Source of the DNA: Gilliamella apicola
GTDB taxonomy: Bacteria; Pseudomonadota; Gammaproteobacteria; Enterobacterales; Orbaceae
Assembly: GCF_003202655.1 (NCBI RefSeq)
Contig: NZ_QGLR01000010.1
Span: forward strand, 164,582-228,581
Direction: 5' to 3'
Length of the DNA stretch: 64,000 nucleotides
Shown here: one piece after another, positions 32,163 through 64,000 of the stretch
Numbering within the stretch: the stretch's first letter is position 1
Layout of the letters: each line of letters begins with the position of its first letter
The notes under the pieces: model-generated
Seen by the model: only the letters and a program-made list of their open reading frames with translations
The model's database searches: none
Told to the model about the DNA's origin: nothing
Made by a program: the position numbers and the translations under genes

Positions 32163-32929
32163 AGTTAGTACCTATCTATTTTTTTTAGACAAAAGAATCC
32201 CGCTCTTAGTTAACGTTAAACTAGGAGTGAATAAGTTCTTATTGACTAAAATTTAAACGCAAAGCAATAACTAGCCATTAAAGCTAATGCTTGGCATAAA
32301 ATATAATGATAAAAATAAAAATTAGTTAAGAGTTAGATACAACTAGGTGGCTCTAAATGCTTATCTGTAAGATATAACACTCGCAAAAGCACTTTGTGAG
32401 CGCAATGGTGTTTTGAATTTGTGTGATCGCGTGTAGAAAACTGCATATCGTTCACCGTTACCGTTTTATCAATTTCGGCTTGTGAACTGAAAAAATAACT
32501 ATTTAGACAGGTTCATTAACCGATAATGATGTGTTTGAATTTATCTCCCCACATTTTGGGGTGACCCGATTGAGTGTCCATATTTCTCCTGTAAATTGAA
32601 CTCATCACTTTGTATTTCAACTTTCCTTAACCCTCATTTTTAACCACCTTTTATCGTTAAAAAAGTAAGAAAAGCTCAAAAGCGTGGACTTTATACGCTT
32701 TTGCCCTCAAGAAGTCAACCAATTAGCTAAAAATAGTGGTGTAAATGACTAAAAACAGCACTAATGATATGAGTTCATATACAATTAATCGCCGTTTTCG
32801 ATGCTGTTTATCGCAACGGTTAACCGCCCTAGTTATTTGCCAAATTTAAGAGTTAACCTACACGGTTTAGATTATGTTTAAACTAATCAACGCTGACAAT
32901 TTTCAATAAATCGTTACAAATTTACTTCA

Positions 32930-33760
32930 CGCAAGGAAAAATACCGACACATTAATCTATCGGAATTAATCTATCAGAATTAACTATCTAATTATTCAAA
33001 ATAAAGAATGCCTTACGTTATAAAATTCTTAATTATATTTACAAAATTTTTAACTTACTGATATTAAAAGATGTTGAAAGTATTTATCAATAATGAATAA
33101 ACTTCTTAATTAACATCAATAAAAATCATCTTACGCTATGGAATTCTTAATTATTTTTAAATGACTGAAATTAAAAGATATCGAAAGCATTTATCTTCAG
33201 TAAATTAACGCTTTAATTATCTTCAATAAAGATCGCCTTACGCTATAAAATTCTTAATGATATTTACAAAATTTTTAACTTACTGATATTAAAAATATGT
33301 TAAAAGCACTTATCATTCACTGAATTAGCGCTCTAATTATTTTCAATAAAGACCGTATTACGATATAGAACGCTTAATTATCTTTACAGATATTTTACTT
33401 TCTGATATTAAAAGATATCGAAAGTATTTATCAACAATGAATTAACTTTTTAATGAACATCACTAAAAATCACCTTACGCTATAAAATTCTTAATGATAT
33501 TTACAAAATTTTTAACTTACTGATATTAAAAATATGTTAAAAGCATTTATCATTCACTGAATTAGCGCTCTAATTATTTTCAATAAAGACAGCCTTACGC
33601 TATAGAATTCTCAATTATTTTTAACTGACTGAAATTAAAATATGTCGAAAGCATTTATCTGCGCTAAATTAACTGTGATTATTCTCAATAATGCTCAGCT
33701 CTCGGTATAGATTCCGCATTATTTTTACAGGAAATTTAAGCTACACATTAAATAATAAAT
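32930..33760. repeat. Tandem array of about seven 107-120 bp AT-rich repeat units in the topB-mgtA intergenic region. It has a higher-order A/B structure with a period of about 237 bp.
   Basis: Unit starts (cttacgctat...) fall at 33012, 33130, 33237, 33356, 33474, 33594 and about 33700. Units 3 and 5 are nearly identical. Each A unit contains a TTTACA-18 nt-TATTAA promoter-like motif and an AATTAGcgctCTAATT hairpin plus T-run. Confidence 0.85.
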
Positions 33761-33954
33761 TTATACTTAAAAAAGAAAATAAAGTCTTGGTAAATATATT
33801 GATTAACTGTCAAAGTAGAGATCTCTTACTAATTGAGAAGCAAAATTATAAGTATAGCGTCGATAATCAATATAAAAATTACTATTTATAATTGATGATT
33901 AACTAGACGATAGATAATTGTCATATTGTTTATACTGTTATTGATAAGTGGGGA

Positions 33955-48463: not shown

Positions 48464-49105
48464 ATGAATAAAAGTAAACAAACAAAAAGTTCAGCATTTT
48501 ATCAACAACAATACCGGCAACGCTTAAGAGAACAAGGTTTGATAAAAAAAGAAGTTTGGATTTTACCGGAAAATAGTGATGAGTTACTTGAAATTGAAAA
48601 AGTATTTCGCCAACCAGCTATAGCGAATAAATCTTTTTTTTGCCATGTGAAGGAAAACAATGAAATGAAAAATAGAGATATCTGGAAAATTAATGATCTT
48701 TACCAAGAATTAAAGCAAACTGACTTAGTCAAACAAGGTTTCGCTAGCGTTGAAATGATCGATGGTATCGATGCCTGTTTACATATCATTATGCATGAAT
48801 ATGGTGATTTACCACTTTTTTTAAGTGTTTCAAATCAACAAATAATGGTTGAAGCGCTCCTTTGGCCAGTTTCACTAATTAAAAATCCTTCATCATTTAA
48901 TGAAGAGATTCTATGTGCTAGAAAACTATTTGCTTTATCAACTATAGCAATTGAAAAAACTGGCGATGGTGAAGTTAATTACATTATGTATGGTGCACTG
49001 AGTTCATCATCAACCTTAAACAATATTGTTTATGAGCTTGAAACTTTATCCGACAATGTGATCAAAGCGACTGAAGCTTATGAACATTTTTTCAATATTG
49101 AATAA
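48464..49105 (+). CDS. Hypothetical protein. The C-terminal about 140 aa are possibly YjfI/DUF2170-like. The N-terminal about 60 aa are basic and may be a separate extension or a wrong start.
   Basis: ORF with no RBS at the annotated start. An internal Met (NNEMKNRD) is an alternative start. It lies directly upstream of a PspA/IM30-family gene, as in the E. coli yjfI-yjfJ arrangement. The similarity assignment comes from memory and is not verified. Confidence 0.45.
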   Translation: MNKSKQTKSSAFYQQQYRQRLREQGLIKKEVWILPENSDELLEIEKVFRQPAIANKSFFCHVKENNEMKNRDIWKINDLYQELKQTDLVKQGFASVEMIDGIDACLHIIMHEYGDLPLFLSVSNQQIMVEALLWPVSLIKNPSSFNEEILCARKLFALSTIAIEKTGDGEVNYIMYGALSSSSTLNNIVYELETLSDNVIKATEAYEHFFNIE

Positions 49106-49135
49106 TTAAAGTAAAAATCCTAAAAGGAGTTAATT

Positions 49136-49828
49136 ATGGTTATCTTCAAAAAATTGGTAACAGCATTACGCGGTGGAATAAATGAAGTTGGTGAATCAAT
49201 CGTTGATTCTCAAGCATTACGCATATTAGACCAAGAAATCCGAGATGCTGATGAAGAATTAAAACAAGCAAAAGAATCATTGGCCAGTATCTTAGCAGAA
49301 CAAAAATTAGCTGAAAAACAAGTTGCATCAACACAAGCTCAAATAACTGAATATGAAGCATATGCAATTAAAGCACTGGAAAATAACAATGAAGAATTAG
49401 CTTTGGAAGTCGCTGAAAAACTTTCAGTCCTTGAAAATCAACATGCTAATAATAAAAAACAGGCTGATTATTTTACCGATAGTGTTAAAAATTTGCGACA
49501 AACTATCTCACAATCTGAAATTAATATTCGCAATTTAAAGCAACAAGTTGATATCGTTAAAGCGACGGAAAGTGTCCAAAAAGCCCAATCCGCTGTCGCA
49601 CATCGTTATGGTGGTTCAACAGCTAAATTACATACCGCCCTTGATTCATTAGACAGGATCAAAAAACGCCAAGAGAAAGCAGCTGCTACTTTTGAAGCAA
49701 AAAAAGAGTTAGCAGGAACTGAAAATGCTGATTCACTTGATAGCAAATTAGAAGCGGCAGGTATTAAAGTTGGTAATCAAAATGCGGCATCAATTTTAGC
49801 TAGATTAAAAGAAAAACAGACAAATTAA
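49136..49828 (+). CDS. PspA/IM30 (Vipp1/ESCRT-III-like) family protein, YjfJ-like
   Basis: 230-aa all-helical coiled-coil protein. The N-terminus has the PspA-like pattern (ALRGGINEVGESIVDSQALRILDQEIRDADEELKQAKESLA). Strong AAGGAG RBS. Confidence 0.75.
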   Translation: MVIFKKLVTALRGGINEVGESIVDSQALRILDQEIRDADEELKQAKESLASILAEQKLAEKQVASTQAQITEYEAYAIKALENNNEELALEVAEKLSVLENQHANNKKQADYFTDSVKNLRQTISQSEINIRNLKQQVDIVKATESVQKAQSAVAHRYGGSTAKLHTALDSLDRIKKRQEKAAATFEAKKELAGTENADSLDSKLEAAGIKVGNQNAASILARLKEKQTN

Positions 49829-49925
49829 ATTTTTCGCTTTTTGATATTTTTAAGTTAAAATATCAAAAAACAAGTATAAAATAATTAATTAGTTAAAATA
49901 TTGTTGTCGAGATGAAGGGAATATA

Positions 49926-50576
49926 ATGGAACTATTTTTGGGAATATTTTTTTCTTTTCCCGTGATTATCTTTAGTGCATTGTTAACAATCTGTATCTTA
50001 TATTGGTTTGTTACCGCATTAGGATTATTAACTATTGACTGTCTGGATTTTGATATTAGTGTCACTGATACATGTAGTGATATGCCACCGGCTGGATTCG
50101 GTGGTTTATTAATGAAATATGGCTTCAATGAAGTACCAATGACACTCATTATTACATTAATATCTTTAATTGGCTGGTCAATTTGTTATTTCGCATTTCG
50201 TCTATTAATCCTACCTTTGTATGATCTTACCTTATTTTATTATTTAGCTGGCATAGTACTGTTAATTATCGCATTCATCTTAGCTGTCTACTTGACTGCC
50301 ATTATTATTAAACCAATTCGTCCACTATTTAAAAAGATGTTGATTACCCATAATCATAAATCATTATTAGGACAAGTTATCGAAATTCGTTCAAGTACTG
50401 TAACCAAAACTAAGGGACAAGCTATCTGTGAAGATGGTGGTGCTGGTCTTATTTTGGAAGTAAGATGCGATGAATCTTATCAGTTTAATCGCGGTGATAA
50501 AGCTGTCATCCTCAACTATGATGAAAATACTAATTGTTATGAGATAATTAGCCTAAAAGATTTTAATGGACAATAA
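49926..50576 (+). CDS. NfeD-like membrane protein (YqiJ/DUF1449-like). It has multi-TM helices plus a C-terminal OB-fold beta domain.
   Basis: Four or five hydrophobic helices, then a soluble C-terminal domain (GQVIEIRSSTVTKTKGQAICEDGGAGLILEVRCDE...GDKAVILNYD) typical of NfeD partners of SPFH proteins. Lies immediately upstream of the flotillin gene. Confidence 0.65.
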   Translation: MELFLGIFFSFPVIIFSALLTICILYWFVTALGLLTIDCLDFDISVTDTCSDMPPAGFGGLLMKYGFNEVPMTLIITLISLIGWSICYFAFRLLILPLYDLTLFYYLAGIVLLIIAFILAVYLTAIIIKPIRPLFKKMLITHNHKSLLGQVIEIRSSTVTKTKGQAICEDGGAGLILEVRCDESYQFNRGDKAVILNYDENTNCYEIISLKDFNGQ

Positions 50577-50601
50577 AAGTTAATTTGGAGAAGGAAAAAA
50601 T

Positions 50602-52770
50602 ATGTTTACAAACAATGATACTATAATATACTTTTTGGTAATTGTTGGAAGTTTATTCTTATTAATTGTTGGATTCTTCGTATTATTTAAAGCGTTTTAT
50701 ATAAAAGTTCCGCAAGGTACCGCGCTTATCGTTAATGACATGACGTCAAAACCTAAAGTCCATTTTACTGGAGCATTAGTTTATCCAATCATCTACAAAA
50801 AAGAGTTCATGAAAATTTCGTTGATCACTTTTGATGTAGAACGAAGAGGTAAAGATGGTTTAATTTGTCAAGATAACCTTCGTGCTGATATTTGTGTCGC
50901 TTTCTATTTGCGGGTTAATGAAACCACCGAAGATGTTCTTAAAGTTGCCAAATCAATCGGTGTTGATCGCGCATCAGATCAGAAAGCAGTTAGTACATTA
51001 TTTAGTGCTAAATTTTCAGAAGCATTAAAAACCGTAGGAAAACAATTTGAACTGGCAAAACTATTTGAAGACCGCTTGAATTTCCGTGAACGTATCATTG
51101 ATGTAATTGGCAAAGACCTTAACGGTTATGCCCTTGAAGATGTTGCTATCGATTATTTAGAACAAACTCCAATTAAATCGCTTGATCCGGATAATATTTT
51201 TGATGCCGAAGGTATCAACAAAATTACAGCCATCACTGCTGTCCATAAAGATGAAACTAATAAACGTGAACGTGACTTAGAGCTGGCGCTGAAAAAGAAA
51301 GATACGGAAACTATCGAAGCCAAACTTGAACTTGAACGACAACAAGCTGACGCTGAAGCTCGTCAAAAACGTGAAATTGAAACAATTCGAGCCAGAGAAG
51401 CCGCTGAAACATTGAAAGTCCAAGAAGAAGAACGTTTAAAAGCGGAACAAGCTAGAATTCAAACCCAACAAGAAATTGAAGTAAGAGAGGAAAATCGCTT
51501 ACGTGAAGTTGAGGTTGCCCAAAACAATCGCCTAAGAGCAATCGCGATTGAAGAAGAACGGGTTACTCGTGCTCGTTCACTTGAAATCGTAGCTCGTGAA
51601 CGTGAAGTAGAGCTACAACGAATTGAAAAAGACAAAGTGCTAGAAGAAGAAAAAAAACAGATAGCCAATGTTATTCGTGAACGTATAGCGGTTGAGAAAA
51701 CAGTTGCCGTTGAAGAAGAACACATTAAAGAAGTACGTGAAGTTTCCAAAGCCGATCGAGAAAAACAGACTACGATTATTGTAGCAGAAGCTAGAGCAGA
51801 ACAAGAGCTGGTTAAACAAGTAAAACAAGCTGAAGCAGATGAACAATCATCAAAACATCGTGCGGTTGAAATTAGCATTATGGCACAAGCTGAATTAGAA
51901 GCCGCGGCAAAACAAGCCGAAGCGAAAAAACAACTGGCTCAAGGTATCGAAGCCGAAGAAGCAGCAATTGGTCTGGCTGAAGCTAAAGTTCGTAAAGCAG
52001 CAGCTGAAGCTGAAGAAAAAGAAGGCTTAGTCAAAGCTAATATTACCGCTGAAACCTTATTAGCAGAAGCCAAAGGTAATCAAGAAATAGGTTTAGCAGA
52101 AGCCAAAGTAATTGAAGCTAAAGCTATTGCTATTGAAAAAGAAGGTTTAGTTAAAGCCAACATTACCGCTGAAACATTATTAGCAGAAGCAAGAGGTAAT
52201 CAAGAAAAAGGTTTTGCAGAAGCCAAAGTAATTGAAGCCAAAGCCAATGCTATTGAAAAACAAGGTTTAACTGAAGCAAAAGTACTAGAAGAAAAACTTT
52301 CTGCTCAAGCTCGTGGTGAAGCATTAGTCATTCGTGAAAAATTAACTGCCGAAGCTAATGGGTTAGTTGAGAAGTTCCAAGCAATGGGTAACATGAATGA
52401 ACAATCACAAAATCATGAAGAGTTCCGCTTAGCACTTGAAAAAGGCTTTGAACAAGCTATGGCTGCGATTGCTGCTAACAAAGAGATCGCTAGAGAACAA
52501 GCTGATGTTCTTGCTGCGGCATTCAGTAAGGCAAATATTGAAATTGTCGGTGGTAATGATAACTTCTTCAATAGCTTCTCGAAAGCTATCAGCGTTGGTA
52601 AAGCGATTGAAGGAACTGTTAACCAAAGTCCAGTACTGCAATCAGCATTACAATCAGTACTAGCTCGCTTATCGGGAAACAAAAAAATCAATTTAAAAGA
52701 GACGTTGCAAAACACTGATTTAAAAGCGTTAGCACAACAATTTTTGTCATCCGATAATGAGAATGAGTAA
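50602..52770 (+). CDS. SPFH/band-7 flotillin-like protein (YqiK/FloT-like) with a long repetitive coiled-coil (EA-rich) C-terminal region
   Basis: N-terminal TM anchor, an SPFH domain (KVPQGTALIVNDMTSKP..., LITFDVERRGKDGLICQDNLRADICVAFYLRV) and about 450 aa of E/A/K/R-rich coiled coil. An in-frame 117-nt tandem duplication lies at 52021..52254. Confidence 0.85.
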   Translation: MFTNNDTIIYFLVIVGSLFLLIVGFFVLFKAFYIKVPQGTALIVNDMTSKPKVHFTGALVYPIIYKKEFMKISLITFDVERRGKDGLICQDNLRADICVAFYLRVNETTEDVLKVAKSIGVDRASDQKAVSTLFSAKFSEALKTVGKQFELAKLFEDRLNFRERIIDVIGKDLNGYALEDVAIDYLEQTPIKSLDPDNIFDAEGINKITAITAVHKDETNKRERDLELALKKKDTETIEAKLELERQQADAEARQKREIETIRAREAAETLKVQEEERLKAEQARIQTQQEIEVREENRLREVEVAQNNRLRAIAIEEERVTRARSLEIVAREREVELQRIEKDKVLEEEKKQIANVIRERIAVEKTVAVEEEHIKEVREVSKADREKQTTIIVAEARAEQELVKQVKQAEADEQSSKHRAVEISIMAQAELEAAAKQAEAKKQLAQGIEAEEAAIGLAEAKVRKAAAEAEEKEGLVKANITAETLLAEAKGNQEIGLAEAKVIEAKAIAIEKEGLVKANITAETLLAEARGNQEKGFAEAKVIEAKANAIEKQGLTEAKVLEEKLSAQARGEALVIREKLTAEANGLVEKFQAMGNMNEQSQNHEEFRLALEKGFEQAMAAIAANKEIAREQADVLAAAFSKANIEIVGGNDNFFNSFSKAISVGKAIEGTVNQSPVLQSALQSVLARLSGNKKINLKETLQNTDLKALAQQFLSSDNENE

Positions 52771-52811
52771 GTTACTATCTCAATAGTTATTTATTCAACG
52801 ACCAATCGGTT

Positions 52812-52838
52812 TTAGGTAGGATTAAATGCCTACCTAAA
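52812..52838 (+). promoter_or_regulatory. Stem-loop between the flotillin gene and the giant AAA+ gene. It may be a partial terminator or attenuator.
   Basis: TTAGGTAGG-attaaatgc-CCTACCTAA, a 9-bp perfect stem with no strong T-run. Confidence 0.4.
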
Positions 52839-52874
52839 CGTTAAGTATTTGAGTATCATTTCAACGAGTAAAAC

Positions 52875-55800
52875 ATGTCAGAAATCCAAGACCAGCAACA
52901 AACATCAATTGATAAAGCCGTCGCGGAAGGCGGAGCTTATGAAATTCTTCGTAAACGTTTAACCTCTTTAGGACAAGAACTTAATCAAAAGACGGAAGCC
53001 CTTAATCAACAAAGGCTATCTGAGTTTGGTAAAAGTGACATGTCCATCATTAGTCGTATTCGAATTAGAACTGAAAATAATTGTGTCGCACGGGATATTG
53101 TTCGTTTTGGTGACTGGCTATTATTTGGTTATAACGTCTATTTAGGATTAAAAAAAGGAACCAAAATAGAGGATGTATTTTCCCTTTATCAATTAGTAGA
53201 ACGTGATGGCTCTTATGAGGCTGATCCAGTTGATTTGTCTAATACATTCTTAAATATAGATCGATTTATCCAAGATTTTAATGAGCTGTATACTTATTAT
53301 AAAAATGCTCAACTACTCCAGCTTGTTGAACGTGATGGAAAACTACTCGCTAGTTTTCAAATTGGTGAGCGAATCAGTGATATTCGAGTTTTTAGATGGT
53401 CCATATCAAGTGACAAAAAGACCATTGAGTATATCGATAATCGGGGTGAACGAGACATCGCATTACCACCCGCATATGATTTTGAATGGATCGAAACAAC
53501 CCGTGAAAATATTGTTAATGGTCGATTTCCACATGTTAATGTTCTTGATACGGTATTTGTTGAAACCATCGGTGGCGACTTAACCATAAAATGTGAAAAT
53601 AACACCAATGATGGTTTAGGTATTTATCGAGAGGAAGTTGTTGATCAGAATCAATCAATTAATGACGCGAAAATAGAATATGCTAAAGTGGGATCATTAA
53701 TCTTATTAAAAGTCCTACCTTACCGAGAAGAAAATTGGCGTTATCTTGTATATAACACCTTAACTCAACAAGTCCATCGTATAGACTTTATTGGACAGGC
53801 ATGTATTCAACTTCCTGAAGATCATGGGATTATATTTCCTGGTGGATATTACTTACAAAATGGTGATTATAAAACTTTTGACCATTCGATGTCAGGCATG
53901 CGTTTTCGACGTATTCGCCGTTCACCAAATGGTGAGGATGTGTTATATATTTTCTATGATCCAACTAACGGTCGATTAGCATTATTTAATTATAATATGA
54001 TCGAACGAAAACTGGATAATCCGATATTAGGACATGGATATGCGGTTTTTGAAGATGGTCGAATGGTGGTCTTTGAAGGTGAAAATGATGAACCAACTCG
54101 GGTACATCCAATGCAGATTTGGCAAACACCTTTTTATAGTGATGAATTTGCCGCACAACAACCAACTAATAACAGCTTCCTTGGCAAAATAGGTAATGCC
54201 GAACTGGTTCGCGGCATTTCAGATCTTTACTTTATTTCGCGTGAAATCGATAACCAAACCGTCTCTTCACAGCTATATAGCAAACTTAGTGAGGATACCA
54301 AGAGACTTTTCGATAACTATTTTTGGCTCAATGACGATAAACATTTAGCCTTCTCCCCTATTCTGCGTAATATTACCCAAACGAGTGAACTGGTTATTGA
54401 TGAATATGAAAAAGTCGAAAGTATTCGTCGTCAATCAGAAAGCGCGATGCGTGAGGCTCTCTCTAATCAGCAAGATTTATTAAGCAAACTTTATCCGGAT
54501 AGTTGGCACGAAACCCAAGAATTTGTTGATGCATTAAATGCCATAAAAATGCAACTTGGCAGTTTAGTCACGTTAAGAACTTATCGTTACATCGATTTAA
54601 ATCAAATCGATAAAATGGAAAATGAACTAAAAACCAGACAGAGTGAGGTTTCATTAGCCACTGCTGAATTTTTAGGAAGTGATAAAGCGCTTGAACCATT
54701 CAATGTTAAAATTGACAATATCGAGCAGCAGCTTAGCAAAGCAGATACGGTAGCGAAATTACTCAATTCGGTAGAAATTACAGAAACCATGTCTGCTGAT
54801 TTGGATATGCTTTCACAATTAATCGCAACCCTAAAATTTGATGATGTTACTTTACAAACCAGAATCATCGAATCCATTGCCGAAGTCTATGCAAAACTCA
54901 ACCAAACAAAGGCTAAGATCCAACAAAAACGAAAAAATTTAGCCAATGTTGAAATGGTTGCACAATTTGGCGCCCAATTTAAATTATTTGGTCAAAGCAT
55001 TGCCAATGCCCTAAGTATGGCAACCACGCCAGAAAAATGTGATGATGAGCTATCTCGTCTTTTACTACAACTAGAAGAGCTTGAGAACCAATTTAGTGAA
55101 AGTGAGGAATTTCTTAATGATATTCTAACTAAACGTGAAGAAATCCTAGAATCATTCGAAACACATAAACAAGCGTTATTAGAGGATAGAACCAGACGGA
55201 CGGATGCCCTACTAACCGCTGCACAACGTATTTTAGACAGCATCCCAAGAAGAACCGCTAAATTTGCCGATCAAAATGAACTTAACGCTTTCTTTGTTGC
55301 TGACCCATTGGCGCAAAAAATCCGTGAAATTGTCGAAAAATTAAGAGCACTTTTTGATAATGTTAAAGCCGATGATATTGAGTCCAAATTTAAAAGTGCC
55401 CAAGATCAAGCCATACGATCCTTACGAGATAAATCGGAAATATTTGAATCTGGTGGAAATGTCATTAAACTAGGTCCACGGCATAAATTTAGTGTTAATA
55501 CCCAAGAGCTTGATTTAACCATAGTGCCTAAAGATCAGCATCTGTTTATGCAATTAACTGGGACTGAGTTTCAAGAAAAAATAATCAATGAGCAATTAGA
55601 AGCCTATAAGCCATTTTGGACGATTTCATTAGAATCAGAATCACCATCGGTATACCGTGCAGAGTATCTCGCCTATTCGATCATTACTGCTGCTTTACAA
55701 AAAGAGAGTGGATTAACTTATGTCGATTTAGCTAACCAGTTAAATCAACCTGAAACGCTTAATAAAACAGTGCGTGATTTTGCCACAATGCGCTATCGTG

Positions 55801-57809
55801 AAGGTTATGAAAAAGGGATTCATGACCACGATGCGGCTAAAATTCTAACAAAATTGATTCCTCTTGGCGAAGCGGCTGGTTTACTGCGCTATAACCCGTT
55901 AGCACGAAGCTTAGCCATTATTTATTGGCACTATAACCAAAAAAATGATATTGCCAAATTCTGGCCAGAACGTGCGAAAACTTGTATGGATATCCGAAAG
56001 TTATTCAGTCATGATGAAGGAATAATTAATCTTCAAGCGGAAATCTCTCAACAATTGACAGAATTTTTCAATGATAATCCAATTGCTCATCAGCCATTCC
56101 ATATTAAACAAGCGTCTGAATATCTTTGCTATGTATTAGCTCAAACGCCACAACAATTTATTTTCAGTAAATATAGCAAACAATTATTTGATGGATTAAA
56201 AAATCAACTTGAACAATCGCATATGTGGGGTGATTTCAATCAATCACAAAATAATCTTAATGAAAGATTAGCAGAACGTTGGAATCTAATCGAAAGTTGG
56301 CTTAAAGGGCTTTGCACATTACCTCTGTATAGCAAACTAAACAATTATATTGCTGAAGCTGTAATTTTAAATATCTTGGATAAAGCAGATAGCCTAACAA
56401 TCAGTGAGGTTGAACTTGAAGTATCGATTACCGATCTACTCGGTGAACACCCAACCATTAATCAAGGCGTGTTAAATATTAATTTAGATGACTTCTTTAG
56501 CCGTATGCGTTATCAATATAAAGTGGTTATCCCACAATTCCAACACTACCAAAGTTTACGTCAAGAAATATTAGTAAACCAACGTGAAGCACTCCATCTT
56601 GATGAATTCAAGGCTAAACCACTTAGCTCATTTGTTCGTAATAAACTGATAAATCAAGTTTATTTACCAATCATTGGCGACAATCTAGCCAAACAAATGG
56701 GTACCGTCGGAGAAACGCGTCGTAGTGATTTAATGGGATTATTACTCCTCATTTCACCACCTGGCTATGGTAAAACCACATTAATGGAATATGTTGCTAA
56801 TCGTTTAGGTTTAATTTTTATGAAAATTAACGGGCCGGCATTAGGTCACAGTGTATTGTCGTTTGATCCTGAACAAGCACCAAATGCAACCGCTCGTCAG
56901 GAGTTAGAAAAACTCAATTTAGCACTGGAAATGAGCAATAACGTTATGCTCTACATTGATGATATTCAACATACCAATCCAGAATTTTTACAGAAGTTTA
57001 TCTCATTATGTGATGGTTCTCGCCGTATCGAAGGGGTTTGGAAAGGTAAAACCAAAACCTATGATCTGAGAGGTAAAAAATTCTGTGTAATAATGGCTGG
57101 TAACCCTTACACAGAATCTGGCGAAGTATTCAAAATACCTGACATGCTAGCCAACCGAGCTGATATCTATAATTTAGGTGAAGTACTCGGCGGTATGGAT
57201 GAAGTATTTGCAACCAGTTATATTGAAAATTGCTTAACCTCTAATGCAACATTATCACCATTAGCCTTACGCGATTTAAATGATCTCTATCAGTTTATTG
57301 ACCATGCACAAGGCAAACCACTTAATACCAATGAGATGAGTTATAGCTATAGCCAAGCAGAAATTAGTGAAATTGTCGCCGTAATACGTCATTTATTAAA
57401 AATTCGTGAAGTGGTATTTAAAGTTAATCAGCAATATATTGCAAGCGCGGCTCAATCAGACAAATATCGAACTGAACCTGCGTTTAAACTGCAAGGAAGT
57501 TATCGAAATATGAATAAACTTGCTGAAAAAGTGTCATCCGTCATGAATGATGCAGAGCTCAATCAAATTATTGATGATCACTACCTCGGTGAGGCACAAC
57601 TACTCACCAATGGCGCAGAAGAGAACTTACTGAAACTGGCTGAAATTCGTGGAGTAATGACGGAAGATGAGACTAATCGCTGGCAACAAATAAAAAGTGA
57701 CTTTATGCGCAATAAAAGTTTAGGTGGCGATGATGCGAATACCGGCTCACAAATTGTCACCCAACTTGCCGATTTAGTGCAAAGTGTGCAAGCGTTGAAA
57801 TTACAGTAG
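52875..57809 (+). CDS. Very large (1644 aa) multidomain protein with a C-terminal AAA+ ATPase domain. Function unknown.
   Basis: One Walker A (LLLISPPGYGKTTL, about aa 1290), Walker B (VMLYIDDIQ), a sensor/arginine region (KFCVIMAGNPYTE...IPDMLANRADIYNL) and a central coiled-coil-rich region. No TM segments. The N-terminal about 450 aa are not recognisable. It begins 105 nt after the flotillin gene. Confidence 0.8.
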   Translation: MSEIQDQQQTSIDKAVAEGGAYEILRKRLTSLGQELNQKTEALNQQRLSEFGKSDMSIISRIRIRTENNCVARDIVRFGDWLLFGYNVYLGLKKGTKIEDVFSLYQLVERDGSYEADPVDLSNTFLNIDRFIQDFNELYTYYKNAQLLQLVERDGKLLASFQIGERISDIRVFRWSISSDKKTIEYIDNRGERDIALPPAYDFEWIETTRENIVNGRFPHVNVLDTVFVETIGGDLTIKCENNTNDGLGIYREEVVDQNQSINDAKIEYAKVGSLILLKVLPYREENWRYLVYNTLTQQVHRIDFIGQACIQLPEDHGIIFPGGYYLQNGDYKTFDHSMSGMRFRRIRRSPNGEDVLYIFYDPTNGRLALFNYNMIERKLDNPILGHGYAVFEDGRMVVFEGENDEPTRVHPMQIWQTPFYSDEFAAQQPTNNSFLGKIGNAELVRGISDLYFISREIDNQTVSSQLYSKLSEDTKRLFDNYFWLNDDKHLAFSPILRNITQTSELVIDEYEKVESIRRQSESAMREALSNQQDLLSKLYPDSWHETQEFVDALNAIKMQLGSLVTLRTYRYIDLNQIDKMENELKTRQSEVSLATAEFLGSDKALEPFNVKIDNIEQQLSKADTVAKLLNSVEITETMSADLDMLSQLIATLKFDDVTLQTRIIESIAEVYAKLNQTKAKIQQKRKNLANVEMVAQFGAQFKLFGQSIANALSMATTPEKCDDELSRLLLQLEELENQFSESEEFLNDILTKREEILESFETHKQALLEDRTRRTDALLTAAQRILDSIPRRTAKFADQNELNAFFVADPLAQKIREIVEKLRALFDNVKADDIESKFKSAQDQAIRSLRDKSEIFESGGNVIKLGPRHKFSVNTQELDLTIVPKDQHLFMQLTGTEFQEKIINEQLEAYKPFWTISLESESPSVYRAEYLAYSIITAALQKESGLTYVDLANQLNQPETLNKTVRDFATMRYREGYEKGIHDHDAAKILTKLIPLGEAAGLLRYNPLARSLAIIYWHYNQKNDIAKFWPERAKTCMDIRKLFSHDEGIINLQAEISQQLTEFFNDNPIAHQPFHIKQASEYLCYVLAQTPQQFIFSKYSKQLFDGLKNQLEQSHMWGDFNQSQNNLNERLAERWNLIESWLKGLCTLPLYSKLNNYIAEAVILNILDKADSLTISEVELEVSITDLLGEHPTINQGVLNINLDDFFSRMRYQYKVVIPQFQHYQSLRQEILVNQREALHLDEFKAKPLSSFVRNKLINQVYLPIIGDNLAKQMGTVGETRRSDLMGLLLLISPPGYGKTTLMEYVANRLGLIFMKINGPALGHSVLSFDPEQAPNATARQELEKLNLALEMSNNVMLYIDDIQHTNPEFLQKFISLCDGSRRIEGVWKGKTKTYDLRGKKFCVIMAGNPYTESGEVFKIPDMLANRADIYNLGEVLGGMDEVFATSYIENCLTSNATLSPLALRDLNDLYQFIDHAQGKPLNTNEMSYSYSQAEISEIVAVIRHLLKIREVVFKVNQQYIASAAQSDKYRTEPAFKLQGSYRNMNKLAEKVSSVMNDAELNQIIDDHYLGEAQLLTNGAEENLLKLAEIRGVMTEDETNRWQQIKSDFMRNKSLGGDDANTGSQIVTQLADLVQSVQALKLQ

Positions 57810-58136
57810 AGGGCGATTAATCAGTGTCTTTATATAGGTTATAAATATAATTTTAGGCTTGATTTTTAATGTTTTTACTCACTATGTTGAGGAAATTGCT
57901 AGAAGATAAGCCTCAAAACCTTTATTAAACCTCGACAGTTGATAAGAGTTGAGCACAAACACTACAGTTACAATATTGTGTAACAATTAAAAACAGTTAC
58001 ACAATTGTAAATTTAAGCCTTTGTGCTTACTACTATCATCCTAAATCGGTAGTCTATTTATCTAAATTTAATCAAAAATAGAACTGGTTTATTGAATAAA
58101 AAGTTAACATTTGAAATATTGGTTTGGAGAAAATAA

Positions 58137-58514
58137 TTAATGATTTTTAATCTTGTAGATATTAACTGTTCCTCGTTTTCTCATGATTATTTCTGCTACT
58201 AATACCATCTTTTGCAAAAGCGCCATATCAAATTCCTTTCCATTTTCAAAATAGATTCTAGCTAGACCTGATATGTAATTTTTTATCGTATCATCATTTT
58301 TTAAATTATTAATTTGAAGAGTATAATTGTTAACAAAATCATCAAATATATGCTTTTCATCATAATTTATTTTATCAATTTCTTTTTGAGACAGATTCTT
58401 TAATACATCTAATCCATATCCATCAGTGGCTAATGGCTGTTCATTCAAATATTTTCTTTGAAATTCTGCAAATCTCAGCAAAATTTCATTAATACTTTCT
58501 ATTAAATTATCCAT
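58137..58514 (-). CDS. Hypothetical small protein in the AT-rich island
   Basis: 125-aa ORF. A paralog-like remnant of its N-terminus (DNLVRVISNECL versus DNLIESINEIL) lies at about 58900..59040 on the same strand. Confidence 0.4.
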   Translation of the reverse strand: MDNLIESINEILLRFAEFQRKYLNEQPLATDGYGLDVLKNLSQKEIDKINYDEKHIFDDFVNNYTLQINNLKNDDTIKNYISGLARIYFENGKEFDMALLQKMVLVAEIIMRKRGTVNIYKIKNH

Positions 58515-59516
58515 AAATTTTGAAATTATCTTGATGCTATTAGATTACCTATATCTTTGCACTAATAATTAGTGCAATTGATATGATAAAAGTTTTCGAA
58601 CTACAGCAACTTTTAATAATATTCCTGTCTTATTCTTTGTTAACCGAGCTACTTTGCAACGGTTATTATAGTTTTTTACTACTTTTATTACCGTTATTCA
58701 ATGCTTAGTATTGGCAGATCTCGTACCAATTAGATCTATTCTTCTACCAAAGCATCCTAATTAAAATCTATCATTTTGAATTTTCGATAATAAAATAAAT
58801 ATTATTTTTATTACATAATTTTTCTAACAATCCTACTCACTCATTCCTGAGAATGAAATGGGTTCTTAGCAAAGCTGGATATTTAACGAAAAACTTCAAT
58901 TTTGCATTTCATCATCGCTATCAAGATATTCTTTAATGATACTTTTTATATTATTGAAATACGTGTAGTTGCTAAGACATTCATTAGATATTACTCTGAC
59001 TAAATTATCTAAATCCTTAAATTTTAGTACTTCTCTATCATTATAAATTTTTTATTTAGCGTTTATATAATGTTACTTTTTCTATTTATCAGTACTGATA
59101 TAACTTATATTTTATCAGTATTGATTATCATCATAGACATATACTTTTATAACCTTTACATCAAAAGTTGAAATCTTTTTATGATTATTATTAATATCAT
59201 CAATTATTGAATTCTCAATATTGTTGCAATTCCACCTAGTTAGTGCCTATTAAACGCTACCATTGTAATTTTAATTGCATGTCATTAAATTGAAACTCTA
59301 TTTTCCTAACTATACAGTCTATCCTAGTTTAGATTTAAATATCAAAGTATTGCTTTATATGCAAAAACACATTGTTTTGCCAAAGATAACCATAAATGTT
59401 ATTACTATAAATCTTATTACTACAAATATTTACACGTTTTTATTCCTGGCGATAATCTTGAACTTATCACTAAGCTGAACACCTAAATAGTTTAGTCAAT
59501 TTAATCAAGTTAGTTT

Positions 59517-59984
59517 TTATTTTATTATTTCAATTATTCCCAAAAATAAAATTACGTATCTACCAGAATTCAGTTCTGAAACCGCAAAACAAAATAATAA
59601 CCACCTGTTTTTTATACTTTTAAAAGTAAAACACGGCGAGAAATCCATATTTTTGACATAATAACATTTGAATTCATCAGGATTGTTATATTTAGGCGTT
59701 TTAGATTTCAATTTTAATTGGTCTACTATTTGATTATAAAACAATTTTTTATCTTCTATATTGATCAAATTTCTTCTTATCAAAATAGATTGGCTAAATA
59801 ATGAAAATGTTGAAAGGTAATTATTGGCAAAATCGGAAAAAATAATTTCAATTTGCTCATTATCTATATCATAGATAAAAGTCTGTTTATACAATAACTC
59901 TAATGTCCCATCAAATAATGTTTCATATTTGATATATTTTTTATTCTGTATTCTTTTTATCTGCATTGTATACGATTTAAACAC
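59517..59984 (-). CDS. Hypothetical small protein in the AT-rich island
   Basis: 155-aa ORF with no motifs recognised. GC content is very low. Confidence 0.35.
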   Translation of the reverse strand: MFKSYTMQIKRIQNKKYIKYETLFDGTLELLYKQTFIYDIDNEQIEIIFSDFANNYLSTFSLFSQSILIRRNLINIEDKKLFYNQIVDQLKLKSKTPKYNNPDEFKCYYVKNMDFSPCFTFKSIKNRWLLFCFAVSELNSGRYVILFLGIIEIIK

Positions 59985-60064
59985 CCATCTTCACTATGTA
60001 AATATCCGATTGTTAGTACATAAATCAACGAGAAAATTATGCCATTTTGTCTGCAATATAAGCC

Positions 60065-60559
60065 CTAATAAGGGATACCTTTAATACTCTCTAGCCATTT
60101 TTGATAGTATTGATGTAATTCCATAACAGTTATAATTTTATCTGAACTCTCTTCAGGCGAAAAAATATTAATTTTTATAGGATTTTTTGATAATCTTTCA
60201 CCTAAATCTAATTTGACAGTATAAAGTGAATAATTAGCTCTAGGTATCATAAAATATCCATATGAACAGCCTTTTATAAGCATTTTTATGCTATTTTTTT
60301 CAACTTTAGTACACAAACCATAAAAAGCATTACTCAGCCTATCTGAACTATTCACAAAAATATTACCAAGTTCATCCATATATTTCATAAAATAAATTGT
60401 ATAAGTACCTGTAAATTTATATTTTTTATTAAAAATCAGATCATATATTTCGGGATCATCAGTTTTTTGTGTCCATAAACTGATTGTGGCTTTTATGCTT
60501 TGATTTTTGGAATCTAAACAAGCTAAATTAAAGCTTTGACAATTTTCTTTATTGTTCAT
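60065..60559 (-). CDS. Hypothetical small protein in the AT-rich island
   Basis: 164-aa ORF with no motifs recognised. Confidence 0.35.
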   Translation of the reverse strand: MNNKENCQSFNLACLDSKNQSIKATISLWTQKTDDPEIYDLIFNKKYKFTGTYTIYFMKYMDELGNIFVNSSDRLSNAFYGLCTKVEKNSIKMLIKGCSYGYFMIPRANYSLYTVKLDLGERLSKNPIKINIFSPEESSDKIITVMELHQYYQKWLESIKGIPY

Positions 60560-61335
60560 TATTTTTATATTACTCGTTGTTTTTTCGATTCATAACTACA
60601 AATTTTGTTATCAGGATAAGAACTATAACCCTTTAAAATTTTATTTAGATCAAATCGTTTACTATCATCAATTTCAATTTTTTAAAGGAAATCTTTTCTT
60701 GCATAATAATTGGTTATAAATTCCAATTCATATTCTAAACAATAACGATATATTAAGCACACAGAATCGAAAATACTTTATCGGCAATTTTAACTCATAC
60801 TGCAATGTCGACACTTCTTCATACAACAAAGTTGAAGGATAACGTTTTGTTAAATGCCGTCGCATCAAAAAACTAGTGAGGAATGCAGCGGATTGTTGTA
60901 GTACCAATATGCATAAGCAGAAAAACCTTGTCTGGATTCATTGTTTTAGTTCATTGGTTTAGTTCATTGGTATCGGTGAATACCTTATTTTTGACAAATT
61001 AAGTTGTAATTGTCTTAAATGTCACTTTAGTAACAACATTATCGTAAGGACATGCTTTGTGGCTGAATGAGCAAGTGATAGCCAATAACTCAAATCAACT
61101 ATCAATTAATTATCAAACCCTTTTCCTCGGCCAAAATGACATAGTACGATTGAGGATAATGGTGCTTTAATTGGGCTTAGCTGGCTCAACAAGTTCGGCT
61201 ATTTTATGTTGCCCGACACTGAATCCGACTATTTTTCATGTCGAGAGTTTTAGTAATACACAATGATAATGATCTCATACTTATTTGTTAAATTTTTTTG
61301 TGTAATGCGTTACCTTGCTCGGCCGCTTTTGTATA

Positions 61336-61554
61336 CTAATAAAACGCCTTTTGCTTATCTTGCTCTGTGCCCTCACCATCATCATACATATAGTCTAAAA
61401 AAAATTGGGCTTCAGCATTACCTTGCTCAGCATCTTTCTTACAGGGAGTAAAGGCTTTTTTGTAATTTTCCTTGTACCAATATTCACTGCATTGATTTGC
61501 ATACCCGGCAAAAGAAAATAAGAGTGATAATATGACTAATAATCCTTTTTTCAT
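61336..61554 (-). pseudogene. Truncated Sel1-repeat lipoprotein/secreted protein paralog. It has a nonsense mutation in the first repeat.
   Basis: Signal peptide MKKGLLVILSLLFSFAGYA plus a first Sel1 motif identical in pattern to 61858..63330. The reading frame ends at a TAG exactly where the paralogs have TGG (AFYW/YTKAAEQG). Homology breaks off about 15 codons later. Confidence 0.7.
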
Positions 61555-61777
61555 GATTTTCCTTTTATTATATTTATATTAATAACGAAAACTTACTTAC
61601 GCTTTTTAAGTGTTATTTTAGGAATTAACTATCAATGTATTTATAAAATTTATACAAAATTATTAATAGGATTTTTTATAAAAAATCTAAGAAAACTATA
61701 ACGAGTTTTTCATAAAAAATCATTGATAGAATGGCTATTTTGAGCCAAATTAAAAATGCATCAACGCATGATTGTTC

Positions 61778-61812
61778 TGTGGAAAAAAAGAAAAAGCACT
61801 CATTGAGTGCTT
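61778..61812. terminator. Intrinsic terminator downstream of the Sel1 gene. An identical module lies at 63556..63590.
   Basis: AGCACTCA-t-TGAGTGCT hairpin flanked by A/T runs. It is part of a roughly 300-bp intergenic module duplicated with each Sel1 gene copy. Confidence 0.65.
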
Positions 61813-61857
61813 TTTTGTGAAAAATGGTGATTTAAAGCGTTTTTTTAAATAATTTAA

Positions 61858-63330
61858 TTATTCTGTTAGTTGCTCTAATTTATTACAAGCCTTTCCAAGA
61901 TGCCCTTCACAAGCTAGTTGGTAATACTTTTTCGCTAAAGATTTATCTTGCTCAATACCATCACCTTTATCATACATACGCGCTAAACGATATTGTGCTT
62001 CAGCATCACCTTGTTCTGCTACTTTTGTATACCAATAGGCAGCTTTAACTTTATCCTGCGCTGTGCCTTCACCTTCATAATAGATAATCGCTAAATTATA
62101 TTCAGCGTCAGCATTACCTTGCTCTGCCGATTTTGTATACCAATAAAGCGCCTTTTGCTTATTTTGCGCTGTACCATCACCGAAATAATACATATTCCCT
62201 AAATTTTTTTGTGCAATGGGGGAACCTTGCTCCGCCGCTTTTGTAAACCAATATAACGCCTTTTGCTTATCTTGCTCTATGCCATCACCCTTATAATACA
62301 TATTCCCTAAATTGTTTTGCGCCGCAAACTGGCCTTGCTCCGCGGCTTTTGTATACCAATAAAACGCCTTTTGTTTATCCTGCTCTATGCCGTTTCCTTC
62401 ATCGTAAATAAGCGCTAAGTTATATTGGGATTCAGCATCATCTTGTTCTGCTGCTTTTGTATACCAATATACCGCCTTTTGCTTATCTTGCTCGGTACCA
62501 TCACCATGACTATACATAAACGCTAAATTTTTTTGTGCTTTGGCGTAACCTTGCTCTGCCGATTTCGTATACCAATAAAACGCCTTTTGTTTATCTTGTT
62601 CTGTGTCATCACCTTCATCATACATATACGCTAAATTAAATTGGACTTCAGCATTGCCTTGTTCTGCTGCTTTTGTATACCAATATACTGCTTTTTGTTT
62701 ATCTTGTTCTATACCATCGCCTTTACTATATATAACCGCTAAATTATTTTGTGCGCTAAATTCACCTTGTTCTGCTGCTTTTGTATACCAATATACTGCC
62801 TTTTGTTTATCTTGCTCTATGCCTTCACCGTCACTATACATAAGCGCTAAATTATATTGGCCGTGAGTATTACCTTGTTCTGCTGCTTTTGTATACCAAT
62901 AAAACGCTTTTTGTTTATCTTGCTCGGTGCCTTCACCGTAATAATACTTATTCGCTAAGATGTTTTGAGCGATGGAGTTACCTTGTTCCGCTACTTTTGT
63001 ATACCAATATAATGCCTTTTGTTTATCTTGTTCCAAGCCATCACCTTTATCATAAATGACCGCTAAATTATATTGGGCGTCAGCATTGCCTTGTTCTGCT
63101 GCTTTTGTATACCAATATACCGCCTTTTGCTTATTTAGTTCGATGTCATCACCTTCATCATACATATATGCTAAAAAAAATTGGGCTTCAGCATTACCTT
63201 GCTCAGCTTCTTCTTTACAGGAAGTAAAAGCTTCTTCACTACTTCCCATAAGCCAATATATTTTACATTGATTTGCATAAACAATAGAAGAAAGTAAGAG
63301 TGATAATATGATTAATAATCCTTTTTTCAT
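61858..63330 (-). CDS. Secreted Sel1-like repeat (SLR/HcpA-like) protein with about 12 tandem Sel1 repeats
   Basis: Signal peptide MKKGLLIILSLLLSSIVYA. Reiterated 36-aa units (AEQGNAEAQYNLAxMYxxGxGxEQDKQKAVYWYTKA). C-terminal Cys-containing tail. Confidence 0.85.
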   Translation of the reverse strand: MKKGLLIILSLLLSSIVYANQCKIYWLMGSSEEAFTSCKEEAEQGNAEAQFFLAYMYDEGDDIELNKQKAVYWYTKAAEQGNADAQYNLAVIYDKGDGLEQDKQKALYWYTKVAEQGNSIAQNILANKYYYGEGTEQDKQKAFYWYTKAAEQGNTHGQYNLALMYSDGEGIEQDKQKAVYWYTKAAEQGEFSAQNNLAVIYSKGDGIEQDKQKAVYWYTKAAEQGNAEVQFNLAYMYDEGDDTEQDKQKAFYWYTKSAEQGYAKAQKNLAFMYSHGDGTEQDKQKAVYWYTKAAEQDDAESQYNLALIYDEGNGIEQDKQKAFYWYTKAAEQGQFAAQNNLGNMYYKGDGIEQDKQKALYWFTKAAEQGSPIAQKNLGNMYYFGDGTAQNKQKALYWYTKSAEQGNADAEYNLAIIYYEGEGTAQDKVKAAYWYTKVAEQGDAEAQYRLARMYDKGDGIEQDKSLAKKYYQLACEGHLGKACNKLEQLTE

Positions 63331-63633
63331 AATTTTCCTTTTATTATATTTATATTAACAACGAAAACTTACTTATGCTTTTTAACTGATTTTTAGGGAT
63401 ATTAACTACCAATGTATTTAGAAAATTTATACAAAATTATTATTAAGATTTTTATAAAAAATCTAAGAAAACTATAACGAGTTTTTCATAAAAAATCATT
63501 AATAGAATGGCTATTTTGAGCCAAATTAAAAATGCATCAACGCATTATTGTTCTGTGGGAAAAAAAGAAAAAGCACTCATTGAGTGCTTTTTGTGAAAAA
63601 TGGTGATTTAAAGCGTTTTTTTAAACAATTTAA

Positions 63634-64000
63634 TTATTCTGTTAGTTGCTTTAATTTACTACAAGCCTCTTGAGAATCTCCATCGCAGGCTTGTTGATAA
63701 TAGCTTTGTGCTAAGGTTCTATTTTGCTCAACACCATCACCTTTATCATACAAAAGCGCTAAATTGTATTGGGCTTCAGCATCACCTTGTTCCGCCGCTT
63801 TTGTATACCAATATACCGCCTTTTGCTTATCTTGCTCTATGCCATCACCTTTATCATACATAACCGCTAATTCATATTGTACCCCAACATTACCTTGTTC
63901 CGCTACTTTTGTATACCAATATACAGCTTTTTGTTTATCTTGTTCTAAGCCATCACCTTTATCATACTTAACTGCTAATTCATATTGGGCGAAATCAAAA
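63634..64000 (-). CDS. Sel1-like repeat protein, a third tandem paralog. This is the C-terminal part; the gene continues beyond the window end.
   Basis: Same repeat units and C-terminal tail (ACSKLKQLTE) as 61858..63330, preceded by the same duplicated terminator/intergenic module. Confidence 0.75.
   Translation of the reverse strand, partial: FDFAQYELAVKYDKGDGLEQDKQKAVYWYTKVAEQGNVGVQYELAVMYDKGDGIEQDKQKAVYWYTKAAEQGDAEAQYNLALLYDKGDGVEQNRTLAQSYYQQACDGDSQEACSKLKQLTE

Follow-up and report, generated by a model that had tools for sequence, protein, structure and literature searches.

We analysed a 64,000-nucleotide stretch of the Gilliamella apicola contig NZ_QGLR01000010.1 (the window), in which an AT-rich islet between a giant ATPase gene and an array of Sel1 repeats carries three small open reading frames (ORFs), here called A, B and C. 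The islet spans positions 57810-60746 and is specific to this G. apicola lineage. Its GC content of 0.252, compared with 0.369 for both flanking genes, is the minimum for 2.9-kb stretches of the window (mean 0.338, standard deviation 0.026). The initial annotation had extended the AT-rich island to 61260; the low GC content was borne out, and the end lies at 60746, since the GC content of 60747-61260 is 0.354. The three ORFs are intact, lie on the minus strand and are convergent with the ATPase operon. ORF A encodes 125 residues (58137-58514), ORF B 149 residues (59517-59966) and ORF C 164 residues (60065-60559). A GTG codon at 59984 would lengthen ORF B to the 155 residues first assigned to it; the homologues and the gene callers choose the ATG at 59966. 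Coding sequence makes up 38% of 57810-61260, in line with the low coding density described before, and the remaining 62% is non-coding. The left neighbour is the gene of a 1644-residue DUF3686/DUF7902/AAA ATPase (52875-57809, plus strand), and the Sel1-repeat array begins at about 61270 on the minus strand. The proteins of the window are identical to DKK70_09185-09205 of G. apicola, a honey-bee gut symbiont, and the three ORFs correspond to DKK70_09195-09205, annotated as 'hypothetical proteins'.

None of the three ORFs has a significant match in Pfam, NCBIfam, PADLOC, PHROGs or PDB sequences, which agrees with their initial description as proteins without recognisable domains. The Pfam Imm-, SUKH- and Smi1-type families and the PDB entries for IFT, Tni2 and RhsI likewise gave no significant sequence match, and the suggested relation to anti-phage families found no counterpart in PADLOC. 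The relatives of B and C were found in a search over 5.8 billion protein clusters, which returned a handful only.

ORF B belongs to a family that is paired with toxins of the TNT type. TNT is the tuberculosis-necrotizing-toxin type of NAD+ glycohydrolase (NADase). The homologue P0009, labelled 'uncultured Apibacter sp.', shares 80% amino acid and 85% nucleotide identity with ORF B, and the homologue P0011, which occurs also in Frischella japonica and Gilliamella sp. ESL0441, shares 61% amino acid identity. In 16 out of 16 contigs retrieved with P0009 or P0011, the B homologue directly follows a TNT-domain gene or its remnant on the same strand, and begins on or just past the stop codon of the PF14021 TNT gene. 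Where the upstream toxin is complete, the end of an Rhs core (TIGR03696, ending in DPxGL) is followed by a full TNT domain, as in classic Rhs C-terminal (Rhs-CT) toxins. The Rhs core ends of these contigs are 80-85% identical to the Rhs protein of Apibacter sp. HY039, and the contigs also bear a PAAR-like DUF4280 gene labelled Apibacter.

The window retains a stub of the TNT toxin gene on the minus strand (59957-59993), which corresponds to the last ~12 codons and overlaps the ATG of ORF B. In the alignment, the stub reads EDGCLNRIQCR before its stop codon, at the place of EEGYLKRIECK before the stop codon in toxin-bearing loci. The homology of the B module to the toxin loci extends from 59993 to 59510, seven nucleotides past the stop codon of B, and the terminator hairpin of the Apibacter-type loci is not kept beyond this point. 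The ratio of non-synonymous to synonymous substitution rates (dN/dS) of ORF B is 0.15-0.22.

Two other arrangements of the B module were found among the fetched loci. In loci L021-L028, of the Frischella or Gilliamella ESL0441 type, the TNT domain upstream of the 61% identical homologue ends early, at profile position 65 of 88, and a gap of 69 nucleotides separates the shortened TNT gene from the immunity gene; the toxin appears inactivated and the immunity gene kept. In the Apibacter-type loci L029 and L032 (1457-5960), the TNT-stub/B module stands beside genes of a helix-turn-helix regulator, a DnaG-like primase (743 residues) and two tyrosine recombinases. Such neighbours suggest that a mobile element carries toxin-immunity modules as well and might have served in the transfer.

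ORF C belongs to a family that is paired with Rhs-CT toxins bearing a Scabin/enterotoxin-like ADP-ribosyltransferase (ART) domain. Homologues with 83-85% amino acid identity occur in Apibacter sp. HY039 (L120, 9747-10310) and in L037 and L121-L124, and those in L029 and L036 share 41% identity. All of them overlap a PF22596/PF01375 toxin gene at its 3' end, and in this gene the end of an Rhs core precedes a Scabin-like/Enterotoxin_a ART domain. The C homologue follows an ART C-terminal domain at every locus with upstream sequence recovered, that is, all but L038, and the order of toxin and then C homologue is seen in L037, L029, L036, L123 and the isolate genome L120. In the HY039 isolate, genes for VgrG, a 444-residue protein, a 1439-residue Rhs protein and an immunity protein are followed further on by an orphan ART C-terminal domain (L120, 9254-9796) and then by the C homologue, which is 83% identical to ORF C in amino acids and 90.7% in nucleotides over 60059-60572. 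The dN/dS of ORF C is 0.30-0.42.

The toxin gene that preceded ORF C is present as a dead relic of its 3' part (60563-60746, minus strand), recognised from nucleotide and protein homology. The relic is 78.5% identical in nucleotides to Apibacter HY039 and 73.7% to L037, and its protein homology amounts to 53% identity over 47 residues. We consider the ART toxin gene dead because of four lesions. Its 5' side is cut right at the codons of the STS motif and everything 5' of it is gone, an in-frame stop codon has arisen (TAC to TAA), the ExE motif is lost (EKE to DNK), and a 66-nucleotide deletion between two TAATATAAAA repeats takes away the toxin end.

The clusters of B and C also contain a few shorter members: a 135-residue variant of B (P0054), a 104-residue variant of C (P0063), and P0010 with an internal gap of 24 residues. 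They may reflect either artefacts at the ends of contigs or genuine disruption of the genes in some strains.

The order Sel1 array, C, B, A and ATPase gene is preserved in more than 25 metagenome contigs at 98-99% nucleotide identity, and two more diverged lineages, L133 (93%) and L039 (89%), also carry the islet. Presence in related strains, which had been proposed as a check, proved informative: five other Gilliamella species or metagenome-assembled genomes (MAGs) and Frischella japonica, all of them species-representative genomes, lack the island here, and their homology ends at the stop codon of the ATPase gene (57803-57818). Different genes come next. A two-component system occupies the site in Gilliamella sp. 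Choc5-1, and G. intestini has the same synteny break and downstream GC profile as that strain; one Gilliamella MAG has a lipoprotein gene and phage tail genes, and Frischella has unrelated genes. The island is therefore specific to the lineage, and the site just past the ATPase gene varies between genomes; it looks like a recurrent spot of integration or replacement. In the MAG with the lipoprotein gene (L043, 11180-13200), the insert is a different AT-rich segment with a GC content of 0.21-0.26 and a 185-residue lipoprotein-like ORF, followed by genes resembling phage tail fibres. The ATPase operon itself is conserved across Gammaproteobacteria without the three ORFs.

Within the lineage, an alignment of 13 haplotypes has its indel columns exclusively outside the ORFs and shows no stop codons in them. 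Most of the indels between strains fall in the spacer between A and B at 58727-59454, a non-coding segment without an ORF longer than 67 residues. This spacer is dispensable: the strain variant L130 lacks all 728 bp of it, with microhomology at the junction, and keeps A, B and C. A Pfam scan of the stop-to-stop fragments of the spacers gave only a sub-threshold match to the LisH motif, which we take as noise. Lineages that are 3-11% diverged in the flanking DNA retain all ORFs at full length. Polymorphisms within Gilliamella comprise three synonymous and five non-synonymous changes in B, and six and twelve in C; non-synonymous changes per site are about 0.4 of the synonymous ones in both. These values, together with the dN/dS of 0.15-0.42 and the lack of indels and stop codons, indicate purifying selection on B and C; for A it is indicated only in part, by conservation relative to the flanks.

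We conclude that ORFs B and C are probably immunity genes separated from their toxins, because their homologues are adjacent to toxin genes, stubs of these genes remain in the window, and an intact toxin gene is missing there; no intact Rhs, TNT, ART or type VI secretion system (T6SS) gene is found elsewhere in the 64-kb window. The island is thus probably a small array of orphan Rhs-immunity genes in the G. apicola chromosome. The earlier idea of horizontally acquired, orphan immunity-like cassettes is supported for B and C, given the toxin-adjacent homologues, the stubs and the absence from sister species, and amounts to guilt by association for A.

We hypothesize that B and C derive from modules in which an Rhs polymorphic toxin, a T6SS effector, is coupled to its immunity protein. 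Their closest toxin-linked relatives appear to be those of Apibacter, a genus of bee-gut Bacteroidota, in VgrG-Rhs loci just downstream of the toxin domains that they presumably neutralise. The predicted target of B is a TNT-type NADase, and that of C a Scabin/enterotoxin-like ART. In Gilliamella, the toxin parts would have been reduced to dead stubs and the immunity ORFs left intact. Neither B nor C has a signal peptide; both are probably made in the cytoplasm, where each may bind and block the matching toxin domain injected by a neighbour. This would protect a cell that itself makes no such toxin. Expression, binding and protection by B and C are predicted by analogy with other Rhs immunity proteins, for which such a mechanism has experimental proof.

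The most economical history would be a transfer from an Apibacter-type Rhs array to Gilliamella, a direction that we infer from the sequences. It is suggested by the low GC content, which resembles that of Apibacter arrays (0.23-0.32), by the near absence of Shine-Dalgarno sequences, and by nucleotide identities of 85-91% across phyla. The GC content of the island, 0.25, differs from the 0.34-0.37 of the host, as expected for DNA of foreign origin. Furthermore, two metagenome samples contain both the island and toxin arrays: ERZ9515143 (L005, L036) and ERZ12636452 (L018, L033). In its fullest form, the scenario is that G. apicola recently captured Apibacter T6SS Rhs immunity genes, shed the toxins and retains the antidotes in its chromosome as a free-standing protection, a case of cross-phylum acquired interbacterial defence (AID), in which A would be an immunity protein of an unsampled family against an unknown toxin. 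This full scenario is possible, and we rate it somewhat below an even chance.

Several observations weigh against the interpretation of the island as orphan immunity genes from Apibacter. The orphan status was judged on the 64-kb window, so a cognate toxin may be encoded elsewhere in this strain. The label 'Apibacter' of the contigs with B homologues derives from MAG annotation and the identity of 80-85% in the Rhs core ends, not from an isolate genome. The AlphaFold2 model of B is unusable, with a predicted local distance difference test (pLDDT) score of 39, and gives no structural support. The dN/dS values of B and C were obtained mostly against copies that stand beside a toxin and thus reflect in part the constraint in the donor lineage, and the polymorphism counts within Gilliamella are small. 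A clear Shine-Dalgarno sequence is missing from all three genes, which fits an origin in Bacteroidota, yet makes translation in Gilliamella doubtful. Finally, ORF A has no toxin-linked homologue, and its dN/dS against the most divergent copy is about 0.9, as detailed below.

The relatives of ORF A are all at least 86% identical and all stand at this same locus. No homologue adjacent to a toxin was found in the 5.8 billion clusters or in 1.84 billion representatives, the latter searched exhaustively with HMMER. The sole extra HMMER match, P0122, is a 1422-residue lipoprotein whose score is the sum over ten short repeat matches, and we judged it spurious. Comparison by phmmer with the small ORFs of Apibacter and Frischella toxin arrays gave nothing. 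The AlphaFold2 model of ORF A is a four-helix bundle with a pLDDT of 63, and fold searches with it returned generic helical bundles only, without a match to an immunity-family fold. Sub-threshold matches to DUF7004 and to PHROGs of unknown function are weak. In L133, ORF A is 98.7% identical without gaps, compared with 92.8% and 11 gap openings in the adjacent spacer; the mismatches number 5 of 378 and 69 of 963, respectively, and ORF A is significantly better conserved. The corresponding values in L039 are 93.4% without gaps and 89.2% with 11 gap openings. ORF A has the lowest density of single-nucleotide polymorphisms in the island and no indels in any lineage. Its dN/dS ranges from 0.33 against L133, based on five changes only, to about 0.9 against L039, and is not informative alone. 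A perfect palindrome, TTGCACTAAT-A-ATTAGTGCAA, occupies 58557-58577 in the leader of ORF A, 43 nucleotides before the ATG, and a promoter-like site (58643-58616, minus strand) lies on its other side; palindromes of such sizes are expected by chance.

Its position, strand, composition and conservation give ORF A a roughly even chance of being a third immunity gene, most simply one whose toxin is unsampled. Nearly as credible, though on balance less favoured, is that ORF A encodes a small regulatory or structural protein restricted to the lineage, or is open by chance and simply adjoins two immunity cassettes. A function outside immunity would fit the lack of a homologue beside any toxin in the databases searched, the dissimilarity to every small ORF of the Apibacter or Frischella arrays, the generic four-helix fold and the palindrome in the leader. 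A chance ORF, however, is difficult to reconcile with its length: in DNA of 25% GC, with ~9% stops per random codon, 125 open codons arise with a probability of about 1e-5 per start, as calculated from base composition. The low polymorphism, the absence of indels and the strand and composition shared with B and C also speak against the alternative.

For the island as a whole, we regard it as unlikely that the locus is the decaying wreck of an array once transferred whole, in which the ORFs are non-protective, open only through recency and becoming pseudogenes. Both toxins are indeed down to stubs, the 62% of non-coding sequence is rich in indels, ribosome-binding sites are weak or missing, and the dN/dS of ORF A against L039 and the shortened cluster members of B and C point the same way; orphan immunity genes of Snodgrassella alvi can gain nonsense mutations (Steele et al., PMC5727410). 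The indel columns and the 728-bp deletion, however, all spare the three ORFs, which stay full-length across diverged lineages. The conservation of ORF A significantly above its adjacent spacer in L133, and the shortage of non-synonymous changes in B and C within Gilliamella, argue against decay as well. Far less probable is that the ORFs form part of another accessory system, such as a toxin-antitoxin system, an anti-phage system or a prophage remnant, acquired with the Sel1 array or the PspA/DUF3686 ATPase operon. This idea draws on the position of the island between the giant ATPase operon and the variable Sel1 array and on the weak DUF7004 and PHROG matches of ORF A. It is opposed by the lack of PADLOC or PHROG matches of any weight, by the absence of an integrase, tRNA or phage gene nearby, by the convergent orientation to an operon that is conserved without the ORFs, and by the direct toxin-linked homologues of B and C.

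Orphan immunity arrays similar to the one proposed here are known from several bacteria. In Gilliamella, orphan immunity genes with a defensive role were proposed before and likened to the AID clusters of Bacteroidales (Steele and Moran 2021, PMC8125069), and Rhs immunity proved specific in Snodgrassella alvi, another bacterium of the bee gut (Steele et al. 2017, PMC5727410). The islet resembles these orphan genes and modules in ecosystem and genus, in the missing cognate toxins, in the adjacent pseudogenised toxin remnants and in the proposed defence. It differs from them in that it stands away from any Rhs/VgrG locus, alone between housekeeping-type operons, and in that the nearest relatives of its B and C cassettes are modules of Apibacter. 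G. apicola was reported to share modules mainly with S. alvi, and Apibacter to share few Rhs proteins with other genera (PMC8125069). Orphan Rhs immunity in Gilliamella is thus already known; what is somewhat new is the stand-alone site, the clean 'toxin-stripped' anatomy and the link to Apibacter.

In Serratia marcescens Db10, the orphan immunity protein SMDB11_2280 gives protection from a TNT-like Rhs NADase by occluding its active site, a mode of action common to all of the unrelated NADase immunity proteins (Hagan et al. 2023, PMC10539506). ORF B would have the same role, as an orphan that counters an Rhs C-terminal NADase of the TNT family; protection is experimental in Serratia only, and predicted for B. 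The Serratia orphan is located inside an Rhs locus. B lies far from any Rhs gene and has no detectable similarity to immunity proteins in the PDB. Orphan immunity arrays also arise through displacement of C-terminal domains or effectors, as in the rhs loci of E. coli and Salmonella and the aux clusters of Vibrio cholerae (Kirchberger et al. 2017, cited in PMC8125069). The islet shares with them the 3' stubs of toxin genes beside retained immunity genes and the microhomology junctions. The displacement arrays, however, lie downstream of an intact effector that drives recombination, and the islet contains no effector or Rhs core sequence.

AID gene clusters in human-gut Bacteroidales were reportedly described by Ross et al. 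in 2019 (cited in PMC8125069 and PMC10539506). They are, like the islet, toxin-free arrays of immunity genes, horizontally acquired and presumed to defend the cell against T6SS effectors from species living alongside it. In contrast to AID clusters, the islet has no recombinase, integrative element or repeat-bounded cassettes and comprises only two or three genes. Its proposed transfer would also run the other way between phyla, from Bacteroidota into Gammaproteobacteria.

Orphan immunity genes are believed to determine which strains of a gut can live side by side, and few cases name the donor toxin, the stripped cassette and co-occurrence in samples together. The islet offers concrete predicted pairs between two culturable bee-gut genera from different phyla, namely the Apibacter Rhs-CT TNT toxin with B and the Apibacter Rhs-CT ART toxin with C, and a functional annotation for DKK70_09195-09205. 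Should the protection prove real, it would mean that defence genes move between phyla in the bee gut and that Gilliamella is a target of the Apibacter T6SS.

Other features described at the locus were less robust. A degenerate copy of the N-terminus of ORF A, previously placed at 58900-59040, was not detected, as tblastn of ORF A against the window gave nothing there at E<=10. The best Smith-Waterman alignment leaves out the N-terminus of ORF A, and shuffled sequences equal it in 16% of cases for protein and 12% for DNA. The segment has no start codon and lies inside the 728-bp stretch that is missing from L130. Of the cassette duplication and decay that had been read from this copy, the duplication is unsupported, and decay is visible instead in the toxin stubs and the indel-ridden spacers. 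The 10-bp inverted repeat suggested to mark the edge of the island does exist: ATTGTGTAAC at 57975-57984 and GTTACACAAT at 57996-58005 form a perfect repeat with an 11-nucleotide loop (57975-58005), located between the convergent ATPase gene and ORF A. It does not exceed chance expectation. Perfect 10-mer inverted repeats with a loop of up to 200 nucleotides number three, compared with 4.25 expected, and those with a loop of up to 20 nucleotides number two, compared with 0.58 expected from shuffled sequence (p about 0.16). Nor does it form the boundary, since it lies ~165 bp past the stop codon of the ATPase gene, where synteny with other Gilliamella species breaks off. It lacks the T-run of a canonical terminator.

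Neither an integrase, recombinase, tRNA or phage gene nor flanking repeats were found in or around 57810-61260, and Rfam, even at E<=1, has no family in the island. The GC-normal segment at 60747-61260 has no ORF, no Rfam match and no homologue among the fetched loci, and comparison of 60747-61335 with all of these loci showed no similarity except for Sel1-repeat remnants from 61277 onwards. The segment contains a short tandem direct repeat, CATTG(G/T)TTTAGTT, in about 2.7 copies (60939-60975).

The Sel1 array (61270-64000, minus strand) consists of a 490-residue protein with 12 repeats and a signal peptide, and of shortened copies at 61336-61554 and 63634-63861. The structure of the copies varies by strain: BLAST alignments break at 61261-61270, and the fragment has 88 residues in other contigs. 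The array is not found downstream of the ATPase gene in sister species, so that the variable region may include it as well. In some bacteria, Sel1-like proteins act in the periplasm as immunity proteins against T6SS effectors. On the other side of the islet, the ATPase gene is the last of a five-gene plus-strand operon (48464-57809), which encodes DUF2170, PspA/IM30, a 216-residue protein, a 722-residue protein that is YqiK-like in UniRef, and the 1644-residue ATPase. The C-terminal 394 residues of the ATPase share 74-81% identity with proteins of Xenorhabdus, Wohlfahrtiimonas, Lysobacter, Stenotrophomonas and Pseudomonas, among others. The giant PspA-linked ATPase is widely conserved and poorly characterised.

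A second very AT-rich stretch, with a GC content of 0.255, is located at positions 1-2000 of the window and could be another acquired accessory islet. It contains minus-strand ORFs of 269 residues (214-1023) and 149 residues (1294-1743) with hydrophobic, signal-peptide-like N-termini, for which neither a Pfam match nor similarity to the fetched toxin and immunity loci was found. Another stretch of about 1.8 kb (32163-33954), with a GC content of about 0.28 and no ORF longer than 66 residues, separates the genes of a P-type ATPase and a topoisomerase.

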